Source: Parcubacteria group bacterium (GTDB lineage: Bacteria; Patescibacteriota; Minisyncoccia; Phycocordibacterales; CALRHW01). From it: DNA of 64,000 nucleotides. Positions 5,384 to 39,818 of the stretch are shown here, piece by piece; position 1 is the stretch's first letter, and each line of letters opens with the position of its first letter. The notes beneath the pieces are model-generated. The model was not told the DNA's origin and did no database searches. It worked only from the letters and a program-made list of their open reading frames with translations. The stretch lies in assembly GCA_943359555.1 (NCBI GenBank), contig CALRHW010000001.1, positions 2,718 to 66,717 on the forward strand, in the 5' to 3' direction. The translations under genes were made by a program, and so were the position numbers.

Positions 5384-6637
5384 TTATATTTTTGGAATTA
5401 TTTTTTGATTTGTGATTGGTGTCGTAGTAGAAATTATTTTTTCAGCTTCAACCGCGTTAAATAATCCATTTTTGTAAAGTGTAAACGCTACTCCATATTC
5501 TTTTACTTGAAACTGTGTATCTCCAGAATCAACAAATTTTACCGCTTCATCAAGAGTACTTGAAGCAATGGCAATAGAAGTTGTGGAAACTTCTATGTTT
5601 TTATCTATGCTCTGTTTTACTTTGTCAATTTTAGTGACCGCATCTTTTCTTTTGTCCTGAGCTGTAGCTTTTTTCATTTCATTATCGTCAAGTGTTGGAA
5701 TTTTTGCCTCCACTTCTTCACGCACTTGTGCTGTTGTGTTTATGTTTGCTTCAACAGAATCAAGGAGATTGCTCAGTTCTGTCTGACTATCTAATTTATT
5801 GTCCAACACCTTTTCGTTTGCCGTTTTTTCATCTAAGGGCGTAACTGTTTCTTTTACTAACACTACTTCTTCAATAGCAACGTCTGGTTTTATAAAACTA
5901 TTTGTAGAATCATCTGTTACAGAAATAACCGCCACATCTTTTTGCTCTGTGTCACTTTGAACAGATGCGACAGTGGTTTCGTTTTTCGTGCTGGGGCTAG
6001 GTGTCGCAACTATGACCGTCTTCAAACTTGCAGTCTCCGCTTTTTGCGTTCTATCTACTTTTGCAAGAGAAGCACTGTGTTCTTTTAAAGACTCTTCTAG
6101 ATTTTTACTTACATCTATCGCCATTTTTAAATCATTATTTGCTTCTATTCTAGCGATTTGCTGTTGAACACTTTTTACATGTTTATTAAAATTTTCTTGA
6201 ATTATGTTTTTTGACGTGGTATCAAGCTCGCCCCTTACTGCAAGTTTTTTGGCTTCGTCTAGTCGCTCACCCGCACGTGCAGTATCAAAATATGCTTTTG
6301 ACTGCGCACTAAAAACAAACCAAAAACGCATGTCTTCCGTAGCGAGTTTTATAGAATAAAGAGCATTGTTTGGAAGAGCCGTCTGTGCGAGCAAAGTCGT
6401 TCCTCCGCCGAAAGCGATAACGACAACAAGAGCAAAAGCCACCGCGCGTTGCGAATGAATAAAATATGGAGAAAAAATGGAGAGAAATCTTTGCTGTTGG
6501 GATTTTTGTGGGTGAGATTTTTGCACAGGATTTTCTTTCACATAAAAATCCACATTTTTCCAAATGTTTTGTTTTTCTTCGGTTGAAAGAAGGATTCCTT
6601 TTGCGGATTTTATTATTTTTTTAAATTCGTTATTCAT
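5384..6637 (-). CDS. single-pass membrane protein, putative anti-sigma factor (DUF5667-like by context)
   Basis: Located 17 nt downstream of the ECF sigma gene. It has a cytoplasmic N-terminal ~60 aa, one TM (AVAFALVVVIAFGGGTTLL) and a long coiled-coil/Thr-Ser-rich extracytoplasmic part. Confidence 0.45.
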   Translation of the reverse strand: MNNEFKKIIKSAKGILLSTEEKQNIWKNVDFYVKENPVQKSHPQKSQQQRFLSIFSPYFIHSQRAVAFALVVVIAFGGGTTLLAQTALPNNALYSIKLATEDMRFWFVFSAQSKAYFDTARAGERLDEAKKLAVRGELDTTSKNIIQENFNKHVKSVQQQIARIEANNDLKMAIDVSKNLEESLKEHSASLAKVDRTQKAETASLKTVIVATPSPSTKNETTVASVQSDTEQKDVAVISVTDDSTNSFIKPDVAIEEVVLVKETVTPLDEKTANEKVLDNKLDSQTELSNLLDSVEANINTTAQVREEVEAKIPTLDDNEMKKATAQDKRKDAVTKIDKVKQSIDKNIEVSTTSIAIASSTLDEAVKFVDSGDTQFQVKEYGVAFTLYKNGLFNAVEAEKIISTTTPITNQKIIPKI

Positions 6638-12425: not shown

Positions 12426-12443
12426 GTGGAGTATTATAACAAA

Positions 12444-12550
12444 CTTTATAAAACATTGTTTGAAAAGACTCGCGCAGGCGCGACGGCGCCGAGCGGAGCA
12501 GAAATCGTAGCAACGATTTACGCGTGCTTTTCAGACGATGTTTTATAAAG
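12444..12550. repeat. intergenic element: 24-bp imperfect inverted repeat arms flanking a GC-rich core that carries a 39-nt motif also found at 38521-38559
   Basis: Left arm CTTTATAAAACATTGTTTGAAAAG (12444-12467). Right arm CTTTTCAGACGATGTTTTATAAAG (12527-12550). Motif copy at 12490-12528. Confidence 0.6.
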
Positions 12551-12554
12551 TTTA

Positions 12555-13841
12555 TTAGCGTATCTTCCTTTGTAGTTTTCTATGAAAACCTATCGCGAAA
12601 CGATGAGATTCGCTGTTCCCGAGTAAAATGGCACGAGAATGTTTTTGGATGATCTGCTTGTCGCCAAGTATCTCGCGAGCTTTGTGTTTATCATCTTTTA
12701 CCACCGAAACAACCTCTATTTTTAGGCTTTTTTTGTTTAAAACTGCATTTGCTACATTGATTTGAGCTTTTGCACCGTCTACGACTATAAGGCTCGGCAA
12801 GGGCCATTCTGCGTGTGTAAGTCGGCGTGACAAAATTTCTTTCAGCGCGGCAACATCATTTATTCCCGGGTTTATTTTTATTTTAAACTTTCTATATTGG
12901 CTTTGTGCTACCTCTCCGTCTTCTATCACGGTCATCACTCCCACGACATTTGTTCCAGCTAAGTGTGCGACGTCGTATGCTTCTATGCGGAAACTTTTTG
13001 TATTTTCTGTGACGCTAGAAATTTCTCCACCAAAAGAACTCATCTCATTTTTATCTGCCGTGCCATGTTTTAAAAGTGCAATATCTTGAATATGATTTAA
13101 AGCAAAAATTGTTCTTTTTACTTCCCCCGCTTTTTCAAATTTTTTCTCGTGCGCGAAACCCTTCATTTGTTTTTCAAGGTTTCGCAAAACTGCACGTTTT
13201 TTTCCTTCAAAAAATAAGCGGAGATTTTTTATTGTTTCACCATATTCTTTTTTTGTCACAGCACCTACGCACACTCCAGAACAAAGTCCTATTTGATAAT
13301 TAAAACAAGCGCGCGGAAGTTTCCCTTTTTTCATTTGCACTTCGCTTGGCGTGCATTTTTTGTCACTGTAAGGAAAAATCTTGCGAATAATCCTCATTGC
13401 CTCTTTAAGCTGTGTCCCGTGCGGAAACGGCCCAAACATAAACTTTATTAGATCTTTAGGGAAAATTGATGAGAGACTTCTACCGCGCACGACTACTATT
13501 TTAGGAAAATCTTCTTTCGTAAAAATTACATAATTAAAACTTTTATTATCTTTTTCTTTTGAATTGTAAGGCGGGTTTAATTTTTTGATTAAATTTGCTT
13601 CAAGAATAAGTGCTTCAAGTACAGAGTCCGTCTGTGTAAAATCCACCTTCTCAAACTCTTGCAACATTTTTAAAATAAGCGGACTTCTGGTATGTGCAAT
13701 GTCCGTAGAAAAATAACTCCGCACTCTATCGCGTAGCGAAGTCGCTTTCCCTACATACAAGACACGACCGCGAGGACCTTTAAAAAAATATACTCCCGGC
13801 GTTTCTGGTAATTTTGATAAAAATTTTTGAGGCGTTTTCAT
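12555..13841 (-). CDS. uvrC: excinuclease ABC subunit C, short form lacking C-terminal (HhH)2
   Basis: GIY-YIG N-terminus GVYFFKGPRGRVLYVGKATSLRDRV. Central UvrB-interacting region and an RNase H-like 5'-incision region. Ends IVVDGAKAQ.... Length 428 aa. Confidence 0.8.
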   Translation of the reverse strand: MKTPQKFLSKLPETPGVYFFKGPRGRVLYVGKATSLRDRVRSYFSTDIAHTRSPLILKMLQEFEKVDFTQTDSVLEALILEANLIKKLNPPYNSKEKDNKSFNYVIFTKEDFPKIVVVRGRSLSSIFPKDLIKFMFGPFPHGTQLKEAMRIIRKIFPYSDKKCTPSEVQMKKGKLPRACFNYQIGLCSGVCVGAVTKKEYGETIKNLRLFFEGKKRAVLRNLEKQMKGFAHEKKFEKAGEVKRTIFALNHIQDIALLKHGTADKNEMSSFGGEISSVTENTKSFRIEAYDVAHLAGTNVVGVMTVIEDGEVAQSQYRKFKIKINPGINDVAALKEILSRRLTHAEWPLPSLIVVDGAKAQINVANAVLNKKSLKIEVVSVVKDDKHKAREILGDKQIIQKHSRAILLGNSESHRFAIGFHRKLQRKIR

Positions 13842-36374: not shown

Positions 36375-37139
36375 TTAAAGAAACAATAACACAACCACCG
36401 CAAGCAAAACCCTATAAACAATAAATACATTAAGCGTGTGATTTCGTAAATATTTAATTAAAAAATGAATAGAGGCGAGACCGACGACAAACGCTGCGAG
36501 TGAGCCGACAATAAGCGAAGCATCTATTGAGCCAGTTGAGCCGAGATCAAAAAGTTTTTTTAAACCAGAGCCTAAAAGAATCGGCACTGACAGTAGGAAG
36601 CTAAAACGCACTACTTCTTCCCTTTTCATACCTGTAAGTAGACCACCAGAAATAGTGCTACCTGAGCGTGACATTCCTGGAATTAAGGCGAGCATCTGAA
36701 AACAGCCTACTAAAAATCCCCGTGTCACAGAAAGCTCTTTCGGAAAATCCTGTTTTTTTGCGCCATATTTTTCTGCAATAAAAAATAAAACACTTCCCGC
36801 AATAAGCGCCCAAGCGACAGTGTGAGCGTTTCTAAAAACAGAGTCTATTTTTTGCTCAAAAATAAATCCTAAAATAACTGCGGGTATTGTGCCGACCACA
36901 ATCGCCCAAATTAAAATTTTATTTTTTACATCACGCACACGCACGATAGTGATCAAGTCTTTCCAAAAATAAACAATGACAGCAAGAGTCGTTGCGAGCT
37001 GAAGCACTGCATCAAAAGAAAGCGAACCCACTGTTTTAAAACCTAAAACTTCTCTGATCAAAACAAGGTGTCCAGACGAGGATATAGGTAAAAACTCAGT
37101 GATTCCTTGTATTGCACCTAAAATAATCGCTTGTATCAT
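36375..37139 (-). CDS. uppP: undecaprenyl-diphosphate phosphatase
   Basis: GITEFLPISSSGHL motif and polytopic membrane topology. Confidence 0.9.
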   Translation of the reverse strand: MIQAIILGAIQGITEFLPISSSGHLVLIREVLGFKTVGSLSFDAVLQLATTLAVIVYFWKDLITIVRVRDVKNKILIWAIVVGTIPAVILGFIFEQKIDSVFRNAHTVAWALIAGSVLFFIAEKYGAKKQDFPKELSVTRGFLVGCFQMLALIPGMSRSGSTISGGLLTGMKREEVVRFSFLLSVPILLGSGLKKLFDLGSTGSIDASLIVGSLAAFVVGLASIHFLIKYLRNHTLNVFIVYRVLLAVVVLLFL

Positions 37140-37190: not shown

Positions 37191-37985
37191 ATGGAGAAAA
37201 GTTTACTTACAATTCCGCTTGCAATAATCATCGCTGGAGCTATCATTGCTGGAGCTTTAGTTTATAGTAATAAAAATAAAAGTGTTGCGACAATCACAGA
37301 CCTAACACCAAAAAAAGAAGCTGTCGATATAAAAATAAGGCCTATTGATATGTCTGACCACATCCTTGGAAATCCAGACTCAAAGGTTTTACTAGTGGAA
37401 TATTCAGACACACAGTGTCCTTTTTGTAAAACTTTCCATGTAACTTTAAACAAACTTGCTTCAGAATATGGAAAAGATGGAAATTTTACTTGGGTTTATC
37501 GACATTTTCCTTTAGATGCACTTCATAAAAAAGCTAGGAATGAAGCAGGGGCTCTGGAATGTGCAGCTGACCTTGGTGGCAATAGTAAGTTTTGGGAATA
37601 TACAAATAAACTTTACGAAACTACAAAATCAAATGATAATCTTGACCCAGCGGAACTTCCAAAAATCGCCGCTGCAGTAGGATTGGATGTAAAAGCTTTC
37701 AACACCTGTTTAGCTAGTGGTAAATTTGCAGGAGCGGTAGACGAGGACGCAAAAGAAGCACAAAAAAATGGCGGAACTGGAACACCTTATAGTATGTTTG
37801 TTTTAAAATCAGATCCAAGTAAAGAGCTGAGAGATTTTTTAGAGTCTAATAATGCTCAAATAATGAAATCCTATCCGGGCTCCGATGATTTTATAGGAAT
37901 ATCAAAAGATAATAGGAAAATATTTGTGAGTGGTGCAATGCCTTACGAAATGATGAAAGCGATCGTGGATTTGATTTTGAAATAA
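37191..37985 (+). CDS. DsbA-family thiol:disulfide oxidoreductase with N-terminal TM anchor
   Basis: CPFC active site in a thioredoxin fold. Confidence 0.8.
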   Translation: MEKSLLTIPLAIIIAGAIIAGALVYSNKNKSVATITDLTPKKEAVDIKIRPIDMSDHILGNPDSKVLLVEYSDTQCPFCKTFHVTLNKLASEYGKDGNFTWVYRHFPLDALHKKARNEAGALECAADLGGNSKFWEYTNKLYETTKSNDNLDPAELPKIAAAVGLDVKAFNTCLASGKFAGAVDEDAKEAQKNGGTGTPYSMFVLKSDPSKELRDFLESNNAQIMKSYPGSDDFIGISKDNRKIFVSGAMPYEMMKAIVDLILK

Positions 37986-38028
37986 TAGACACTGGTCGCA
38001 CACTCGCGGAAAAATAAAAAATCCCCCC

Positions 38029-38064
38029 GACCCTGCCAAATGAAAATAAATTTGGCGAAGGGTC
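38029..38064. terminator. bulged hairpin, terminator-like on minus strand (T-run follows on minus)
   Basis: GACCCTGCCAAAT...ATTTGGCGAAGGGTC. The minus strand is followed by GGGGGGATTTTTTATTTTT. Confidence 0.45.
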
Positions 38065-38065
38065 A

Positions 38066-38575
38066 GAGGGATAAAGAGCCAAAGGCTCAAACTAATTTGC
38101 AAGTGTCAGTTGCGGGACAACAACACGATGACGAAATCCGGCGCACCAGATATGACCAAAACCCAATTTGTGGGCGGAGACCCTAAGACGGCTGTAGCCG
38201 TCGAAGAAGACAGACGCAACGAAGTATTCGCCTCTAACCTTGTAAAGGAAGAAAGTTGCGTCTCCGTCTGTACGGAGCCACTTTCTCTGGTGTCGCGCAA
38301 ACTCTATGATCTGACTCTGTTCCAAGCACAGGCTATCAAGGTTAGAACGAGCGCCAGTGAAAATCTGATAAAAGTTTCCATCCCTGACCAGTTCATAAAC
38401 CTCGATGTTCGTAGGACCACTTGGCTTGCTTTTGATATCACTTCCATAACTAAGGAAGTGATAGTCGATATAACTAGTGAAGACATCTTTCGCTTCTGCG
38501 ATAGCACTCTTCCCGTCTGTCGAGCGGAGCAGAAATCGTAGCAACGATAGACGCGTGCTCTGAAAACACAACTTA
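38066..38575. other. GC-rich anomalous island; candidate structured ncRNA or horizontally acquired small gene
   Basis: Its base composition is visibly GC-richer than the flanks and it has many GC-stem hairpins. Both strands are open but only from TTG, and there is no SD. The 39-nt motif sits at its right edge. Confidence 0.4.
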
Positions 38576-38591
38576 TTTATTTTTTTGTTGC

Positions 38592-39818
38592 CTAGTAATT
38601 CCTCAAACGATCAATATTCTCATGCTGTCGTATCTTTTCATGCGCCTTTGCTTCAATCTGCCTAATACGCTCACGAGTCACCCCAAACTCTTTTCCTACT
38701 TCTTCAAGAGTATGAGTAATACCGTCTACAAGTCCGTGTCGCATTTCCAATATCCTACGCTCTTTTGGAGGAAGGTCATTTAAAATTTCTTTTACTTGAT
38801 CAGAAATTATTCGTCGTGAAGAATCTTGGTCGGGCGAAAGTATCTTGTCATCAGGAATAAAATCCCCGAGAGTTGATTTACCGTCGTCACCATCGTCGCC
38901 GACAGGACTTTCAAGAGATACAGTACTCTGATCAATCTTCTCAATATTATAAATTTTGTCCACGTCCAAATTCATTTCCATCGCAACTTCTTCTGGTAAA
39001 GGATCTCGTCCTAGGTCTTGAGAAAGTCGGCGCACCACTTGCTTGTATTTTGCAATCGTTTCCACCATGTGCACTGGCACACGAATAGTACGCGACTGAT
39101 CAGCGAGTGCGCGAGTAATAGCTTGACGAATCCACCAAGTGGCATAAGTAGAAAACTTATATCCTTTTGTCCAATCAAATTTATCTACAGCTTTAAATAA
39201 TCCGAGATTTCCTTCCTGAATTAAATCAAGAAGTGTCAAGTCTGGACTTCTTCCAACATATTTTTTGGCAATTGAAACTACAAGGCGTAGGTTGGACCGA
39301 GCGAGCAGATTTTTCGCTTCGTCATCTCCTTTCTCAATTCTCTTTGCGAGTTCTTTTTCTGTCGCACCAGAAATGAGAGGATATTGACCTATTTCTTTTA
39401 AATACATTTGGATAGAATCGTATGGAGAACCCTCACCTTTATTGTAAGTATATTTTTTAACTGCAGGATCATCAGCGGGGTCTTTTGAATCAAGAAGTCC
39501 TCCTCCCTCAAGAATATCTATTCCTGCTACAGAAAGCTGAGAATATAGCTCTTCTAAAAAAAGAATATTATCTTCAATAGTTGGAAATTCCTTTAGAATT
39601 TCATCATAAGTAATGAAACCTCGCTCTTTACCTTTAGCGAGAAGTTGTTTTACGCCATGGTCAGATTTTTGAGATTTTTTTGCTGATACTCTAGATTTGG
39701 GTTTTTTTGCGGTGGCAGATTTTTTGGTTTTTGCTGAAGCCGACTTTTTGCCAGACATAGTTTTTTTCACTTTTTTCACAGCTTGCTTTTTATTTTTTGT
39801 TTTTTTATTTTTTTTCAT
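38592..39818 (-). CDS. rpoD: RNA polymerase primary sigma factor
   Basis: Regions 1.2-4 are present ([16 protein letters not shown]; [14 protein letters not shown]). Lys-rich basic N-terminus. Confidence 0.9.

Follow-up and report, generated by a model that had tools for sequence, protein, structure and literature searches.

The sequence analysed here is a 64,000-nt (64-kb) stretch of contig CALRHW010000001.1 from a Parcubacteria group bacterium (assembly GCA_943359555.1), hereafter the window. Our subject is the GC-rich block of about 0.5 kb at positions 38066 to 38575, located between the stop codons of rpoD and a convergent DsbA-like gene. An initial annotation had described this block as a structured RNA or foreign insert and not a convincing native protein gene. 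We find that it very probably represents the 3' part (codons 29 to 170, stop codon and terminator) of a variable-protein gene of the diversity-generating retroelement (DGR) type, a recently inactivated orphan target from which the 5' part has been deleted. The features of the locus, including the variable region (VR) of the gene, are listed below.

38592..39818, minus strand: rpoD (408 aa; Sigma70 r1-r4 Pfam domains), upstream co-directional neighbour
38521..38585, minus strand: left half of a palindromic element of ~115 nt after the rpoD stop, consisting of an AT-rich arm (38558-38585) and the first 37 nt of the core (38521-38557); found by blastn, with the full element at 5676-5790 of locus L001
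38523..38571, minus strand: chance continuation of the frame in the 5' direction through the half palindromic element, up to a mechanical TTG at 38569-38571; no Shine-Dalgarno sequence and no match to the N-terminus of the family
38092..38522, minus strand: remnant coding sequence (CDS) of a DGR-type variable-protein gene, codons 29-170 and stop (38092-38094); 99.8% identical to L001 6083-6705 (170-aa gene P0001) and supported by the family alignment
38110..38541, plus strand: antisense shadow open reading frame (ORF), 143 aa; no family matches, and a ratio of nonsynonymous to synonymous substitution rates (dN/dS) of 0.79
38262-38277: hairpin ctccgt-ctgt-acggag, present in the sequence
38213-38221 and 38256-38264: pairing agacgcaac/gttgcgtct, present in the sequence
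38187-38202: hairpin gacggc-tgta-gccgtc, present in the sequence
38107..38223, minus strand: VR equivalent, encoding FVASVFFDGYSRLRVSAHKLGFGHIWCAGFRHRVVVPQL, with an end, GTTGTTGTCCCGCAACTG, like an initiation of mutagenic homing (IMH) site; alignable to VRs of homologs whose cognate template repeat (TR) shows adenine-specific mismatches
38076..38088, minus strand: small conserved hairpin GAGCC-TTT-GGCTC just past the stop; also present 3' of the VRs of L033, L036 (both DGR-linked) and further loci
38057-38070, minus strand: conserved block TCCCTCTGACCCTT after the small hairpin; recurs nearly verbatim in L033 and L036
38010..38072, minus strand: intrinsic terminator (RNAfold), stem 38021-38072 and T-run 38010-38020
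37191..37985, plus strand: DsbA/thioredoxin-like gene (Thioredoxin_4/DSBA Pfam matches), convergent neighbour
12440..12556, minus strand: second copy of the palindromic element, here complete, lying between the stop of a uvrC-like gene and the ddl start; core (12467-12526) 97% identical, AT-rich arms different

The visible jump in base composition over the AT-rich background is borne out, with 38100-38299 reaching 52.5% GC against a mean of 38.6% for the whole window (standard deviation, 4.7; 200-nt windows). Only 0.35% of all 200-nt windows reach this value, and in a sliding-window scan the segment accordingly falls among the top 0.4%, as does the entire 431-nt gene remnant (47.3% GC). The peak itself is the VR (53.8%), and the GC peak that had drawn attention is the VR and its scaffold. 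Two ORFs with TTG starts occupy the block as described initially, one of 159 aa on the minus strand (38092-38571), devoid of internal Met codons, and one of 143 aa on the plus strand (38110-38541). The gene names rpoD, DsbA-like and ddl agree with the Pfam listings, and a 39-nt motif noted at the right edge of the block is indeed repeated near ddl (38513-38551 versus 12490-12528; 95% over 39 nt). The minus-strand terminator, consisting of a hairpin and T-run, was also recovered, with a folding energy of -40.5 kcal/mol for the 96 nt of 38000-38095 (which include the small hairpin at 38076-38088). Its stem contains mismatches, and a strict consensus terminator scan missed it.

A domain-less protein family linked to retroelements

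A word-indexed search with the minus-strand ORF returned 14 homologs from Patescibacteria metagenomes and metagenome-assembled genomes, sharing 38-98% identity, none of which carries a Pfam domain. A profile built from these homologs retrieves 2,459 clusters at E<=1e-3 and 864 at E<=1e-30 (counted as 50% identity representatives). Pfam and NCBIfam searches with both ORFs, a PHROGs search with the family and a sequence search of the PDB gave no useful match. The conserved unit of the family is a C-terminal domain of ~155 aa, preceded in most members by a helical N-terminal extension of ~55-75 aa; short members of 153-176 aa also exist. The gene of the window's lineage differs from most of the family in having no such extension, even in its intact allele.

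Substitutions between two alleles from the same population, allele A (L001) and allele B (L081), follow the codons of the minus-strand frame, with a synonymous divergence (dS) of 0.80 and a dN/dS of 0.28. For the same pair, dN/dS is 0.79 in the frame of the plus-strand ORF and 0.94 and 1.10 in the other two sense-strand frames. In addition, all 19 family genes tested are richer in GC than their flanks, by 2-19 points, and the GC-richness and C-ending codons of the block are thus a trait of the whole family. The foreign look ascribed to the block is in this sense accurate, since every family member examined stands out from its surroundings to this degree and the family travels with a retroelement. 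The AlphaFold model of P0001, the intact 170-aa protein, is of high confidence (pLDDT, the per-residue score, 91.7; pTM, the whole-fold score, 0.88) and weakly resembles C-type-lectin and formylglycine-generating-enzyme (FGE) folds. A divergent C-type-lectin fold is proposed for the family. Among the closest known systems are the C-type-lectin-fold DGR variable proteins of solved structure, Mtd, TvpA (2y3c), AvpA and TaqVP, and the FGE-like sulfatase-modifying-factor fold.

Many family members are linked to DGRs. In L007/L008, nt 565-680 of the gene for P0011 are copied 285 nt downstream (116 nt, 84.5% identity), and 17 of the 18 mismatches in L007 set an A in the TR against a non-A in the VR. 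The downstream copy adjoins genes for bAvd and for an RVT_1 reverse transcriptase, and together with the adenine mismatches this constitutes the DGR signature as described (PMC5758913). The homologs P0014 and P0012 also lie beside Avd or reverse-transcriptase genes. A metagenome scan added 52 further loci. Among about 30 non-redundant family loci with at least 0.8 kb of downstream sequence each, ~18 have a TR and/or Avd or reverse-transcriptase gene beside the family gene, and TR adenines account for 13-20 of the 15-22 TR/VR mismatches in these DGR-linked loci. No TR, Avd or reverse transcriptase lies near about 11 of the 30, among them the locus of the window's lineage and that of P0004. The VR of the family comprises the last ~39 residues (FFVA.V...VW.A..R.RVVVPQL). 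The window VR contains 15 adenines in 120 nt, compared with 9-16 in family VRs and 27-32 in TRs. As a separate observation, some loci contain two VR-bearing target genes per TR (L026, 6442-6553 and 12728-12842; L052, 2385-2510 and 5100-5225).

In such systems the neighbouring TR would be transcribed and copied, with errors at adenines, by the Avd/reverse-transcriptase pair. The cDNA would then replace the VR, by which the ligand-binding face of the divergent C-type-lectin-like domain would be rewritten. DGR targets of the Candidate Phyla Radiation (CPR) have been reported to lack conserved domains and probably to be new C-lectin variants (PMC8144416; PMC5758913). The gene described here resembles those targets ("DGR clade 2", Roux et al. 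2021, PMC8144416; unclassified VR classes, Wu et al. 2018, PMC5758913) in being small and cytoplasmic-looking, without a recognisable Pfam, transmembrane or other domain, and in ending in a C-terminal VR with an IMH-like GC-rich end followed by an inverted repeat. Its homologs, too, stand beside TR, Avd and reverse transcriptase with adenine-specific mismatches. The window copy differs from them in having no DGR cassette within 64 kb, a VR that is invariant among strains, and no 5' end.

A 344-bp deletion and allelic turnover

Four contigs of the same lineage (L001-L004) show the gene order rpoC, dnaG, rpoD, 170-aa gene, dsbA-like (convergent) and bacA. On the minus strand, window positions 38750..38521 match L001 5511-5740 at 100% identity, and 38522..37900 match L001 6083-6705 with one synonymous difference. 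The 344 bp in between (L001 5741-6084) are absent from the window, with a 2-nt CG microhomology at the junction (38521-38522). Read in order, the lost segment comprises the distal half of the palindromic element, a sigma-70 promoter matching the consensus at 12 of 12 positions (TTGACA-17-TATAAT), a 5' untranslated region (UTR) of ~160 nt, AAGGA and the ATG, and 28 codons. These codons encode two predicted beta-strands together with a near-invariant serine, Ser19 of a LISG motif, and even the shortest family members start at the LISG-motif strand.

The window copy thus retains neither a promoter, ribosome-binding site and start codon of its own nor the full conserved domain. Its frame continues for 16 residues upstream of the junction, which are read from the half palindrome and match nothing. 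The doubt raised initially about a native protein gene was therefore justified for this copy, which is not intact compared with sister strains. Because promoter, leader, Shine-Dalgarno sequence, ATG and 28 codons have been deleted, the remainder is most likely a recently inactivated remnant, that is, a pseudogene. The breakpoint within the palindromic element coincides with the base of the GC hairpin of its core (GGCGC-CGTC-GCGCC), and we infer that slippage or breakage at this position is the probable origin of the deletion. The deletion allele would be untranslated, because it has no promoter, Shine-Dalgarno sequence or ATG and has lost a strand of the core domain. Since the hairpin element after rpoD has been halved, the remnant may still be passively transcribed by read-through from rpoD up to the gene's own terminator.

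The same junction is found in three further assemblies, namely L075 (Logan ERR5863119), L076 (a 52-kb contig, ERZ27280328) and L082 (ERZ27280264, with one single-nucleotide polymorphism [SNP]); L082 carries a nonsynonymous change in a conserved TDG motif. We considered the opposite polarity, in which the 344 bp would be an insertion in the other strains; this is contradicted by the distant homologs, all of which contain the N-terminal strand. A linked strain marker is provided by BacA (window 36375-37139), with 254 aa in the window and the other deletion-allele contigs and 261 aa in contigs with the full-length allele.

The plus-strand ORF was rejected as a gene, as it has no Pfam or NCBIfam matches and the dN/dS in its own frame is that of the list above. 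In public assemblies with the deletion allele, gene callers annotate this antisense 143-aa ORF (L075 4278-4709, L076 4278-4709, L082 1437-1868), and they choose it only where the assembly contains that allele. The antisense protein is an annotation artefact propagated into protein databases, and the deletion explains how the wrong ORF came to be annotated in deletion strains.

Two alleles circulate in the population, A (L001) and B (L081 3356-3868), and L081 is divergent over the whole gene. Locus L009 is an intragenic recombinant, in which the first ~345 nt of allele B (at L001 6003-6352 in the comparison with L001) are joined to the VR of allele A between flanks of 100% identity. L009 and L001 show a second patch of 84-96% identity at L001 7303-7400 (approximately window 37205-37300) within otherwise identical sequence. 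This patch falls within the N-terminal part of the DsbA-like gene, where the signal or transmembrane end is encoded, and may be another small recombination tract.

Conserved elements outside the reading frame

Within the lost 344 bp, L001 5870-5921 forms a hairpin that is kept upstream of family genes in many loci. It spans ~55 nt, has the consensus TTCGCCAYAGCAGAAAGyGCC...GGGCtTTCTCcGCTGTGGCGAA, and lies between the consensus sigma-70 promoter and the start codon. Copies were located as follows.

L025 4701-4756; L028 5702-5757; L010 5897-5951: leader hairpin
L026 5791-5844 and 12061-12112; L007 4887-4949: leader hairpin
L036 4735-4789; L037 5676-5732; L048 2568-2644: leader hairpin

A covariance model recovers the hairpin from at least 12 distinct loci, where it lies on the sense strand and precedes the start codon by 50-160 nt; sense scores are about twice the antisense scores. 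Across 14 sequences, 90.8% of cells pair, compared with 39-48% when the partners are slid, and double (compensatory) changes occur in 14 of 22 pairs; none of 500 shuffles reached the observed values. The hairpin has no match in Rfam. On the basis of this strong covariation we propose it as a candidate new cis-regulatory leader. In L026, each of the two target genes is preceded by its own copy.

At the other end of the gene, the noncoding 3' flank is more conserved between loci (77-85% identity) than the CDS (60-62%); between the window and the DGR-linked L033 and L036, the values are 81-85% for the flank and 62% for the CDS. The 3' flanks of family VRs also show a run of short YCYTTTGR-like units spaced by ~9-11 nt (e.g., GATTCTTTGATACTTTGTTCCTTTGACCC) ahead of the terminator, as seen in L030, L037, L041, L050, L052, L064, L067 and others. 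The corresponding stretch of the window, 38040-38091, reads TTTGAGCCTTTGGCTCTTTATCCCTCTGACCCTT. The units may form an array bound by a protein, or they may contribute to target recognition.

The 39-nt motif mentioned above belongs to the 60-nt GC-rich core of the palindromic element, CACGCGTCTATCGTTGCTACGATTTCTGCTCCGCTCGGCGCCGTCGCGCCTGCGCGAGTC, which holds two small hairpins and is flanked by AT-rich arms of 25-28 bp. From one locus to the other the arms share no sequence relationship, but they pair perfectly within each copy, and the whole element folds with z scores of -7.5 to -9 (L001 copy, -7.5 to -8.4). No match to the core was found in viral contigs, and the other fetched loci gave only chance 13- to 14-mers at three unrelated loci. 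Repetitive extragenic palindromic (REP) sequences, bacterial interspersed mosaic elements (BIME) and miniature inverted-repeat transposable elements (MITE) are likewise short repeated elements that form a long hairpin, and the element lies directly after the stops of rpoD and the uvrC-like gene and at a deletion breakpoint. Unlike in a MITE, only the 60-nt core is conserved, and the arms differ fully in sequence while still pairing, in contrast to MITE terminal inverted repeats; 2.5 copies were seen. Multiple copies with conserved terminal inverted repeats, as expected of a MITE or REP, are thus not what we observe, the cores being 97% identical and the arms unrelated. The element may have inserted into pre-existing terminator palindromes, or its arms may evolve rapidly by compensatory change.

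Alternative readings and significance

The proposal of a lineage-specific or undescribed structured RNA, forming the 3' end of the dnaG-rpoD transcript, draws on a GC-rich block with several short GC hairpins that runs in the same direction as rpoD and ends in a terminator, and the halved hairpin element in the deletion allele makes read-through plausible. The three named hairpins are present, but the density of structure, described as high, exceeds that of shuffled sequence only weakly (folding z, -2.55 on the minus strand and -1.99 on the plus strand; 2 of 100 shuffles fold equally well). All three sit within codons of the conserved protein and are incidental. Rfam 15 gave nothing in the region at the gathering threshold, and the best sub-threshold matches at E<=10, scoring 19-21 bits against cut-offs of 60-72, are snoRNA, sRNA and miRNA noise; the upstream region of the intact allele likewise gave only sub-threshold noise. 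ARAGORN found neither tRNA nor tmRNA near the block. The block is nearly identical to a protein gene of sister strains, conservation over the 2,459 clusters is at the amino-acid level, and the substitutions are codon-periodic and not pairing-driven. The clear protein homologs and codon-periodic substitutions, which the initial annotation itself had named as the refuting outcome, and the lack of an Rfam match refute the RNA, and we consider such a reading highly improbable; of the suggested transcript, passive co-transcription with rpoD stays plausible, as the element after rpoD has lost its distal half, but there is no RNA gene.

One breakpoint lies inside a sequence that recurs at 12467-12526, which could suggest that the repetition of the 60-nt core misled the assembly and that the deletion is an artefact. 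The other breakpoint, however, lies in unique coding sequence, where a repeat-induced misjoin would not give this junction; the junction was assembled independently in ERR5863119, ERZ27280328 and ERZ27280264 and is linked to the 254-aa form of BacA, and we hold an artefact to be extremely improbable. A further reading takes the truncated ORF to be still functional, producing a shortened variable protein on a read-through transcript, either from the TTG at 38571 or by re-initiation after rpoD. In its favor, the frame is open for 159 codons, this TTG lies just 20 nt past the rpoD stop, family members of 153-176 aa exist, and the deletion allele is known from at least four assemblies or samples and is old enough to have gained SNPs. 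The TTG, however, has no Shine-Dalgarno sequence, while in the intact allele AAGGA precedes the ATG by 9 nt; residues 1-28 are gone, including the two strands and Ser19 of the LISG motif, at whose strand even the shortest members begin; the 16 residues that replace them at the N-terminus are read from palindromic repeat sequence; and the conserved TDG motif is altered in L082. A functional short protein thus appears unlikely.

Several observations weigh against a recently inactivated DGR target. No stop interrupts the 159 codons of the remnant frame, and several samples retain the deletion allele, such that residual function, by translation from the TTG at 38571 or in an RNA role, has to be considered. 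The 64-kb window contains no reverse transcriptase or Avd gene (tblastn with family-linked queries; nothing below E 0.89) and no TR-like second copy (blastn, word size 7). A scan of public genomes for a cognate TR with the VR 3' pattern CGYCNTCGTGTTGTTGTCCCG gave at least 10 matches, all in unrelated GC-rich Proteobacteria, Planctomycetes and the like, and the window's own genome was not among the matches listed. Among the contigs of allele-A type and with the deletion allele that reach the VR, including the recombinant L009, the VR is identical except for two synonymous SNPs. DGR targeting of the window VR itself accordingly stays putative, drawn from alignment with its relatives. Outside the window, no reverse transcriptase or Avd is found within +/-6 kb in the loci of sister strains, and the TRs of eight other loci differ from the window VR by 26-42 non-adenine mismatches each, none of them being cognate. 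The divergent allele B differs from allele A by ordinary substitutions as well. The static VR across strains gives no sign of ongoing mutagenic homing, and in combination with the missing TR, Avd and reverse transcriptase in 64 kb, it indicates that this copy is most likely an orphan (or remote) target without current diversification. Orphan and remote DGR targets (Wu et al. 2018, PMC5758913) likewise carry a VR far from any reverse transcriptase and keep 3' recognition features; for a remote target, a matching TR would be expected at another place in the same genome. Remote targets (>100 kb) were mainly reported outside the CPR set (Wu et al. 2018, PMC5758913).

A bolder interpretation, which we regard as rather doubtful, would have the locus be a living remote DGR target with ON alleles (full length, in two recombining forms) and OFF alleles (deprived of promoter and 5' end). 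The palindromic element would then be a new deletion-seeding element, and the undescribed structured leader could regulate expression of DGR variable proteins.

The block thus belongs to a known kind of gene, of which it is a damaged copy, and recognising it as such removes the false lead of a "mystery RNA" after rpoD. More broadly, it brings into view a large domain-less Patescibacteria family (~2,500 clusters at 50% identity), documented here as a DGR target family, of which about a third of the members sit without an adjacent retroelement. The interest of the locus lies chiefly in an orphan, frozen target with conserved cis-elements, the leader hairpin and palindromic element, and the turnover within the population, which offers a natural case of a DGR-target locus with divergent alleles, intragenic recombination and loss of a 5' end. 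The conserved leader hairpin and 3' flank provide handles for the expression and recognition of DGR targets in the CPR.

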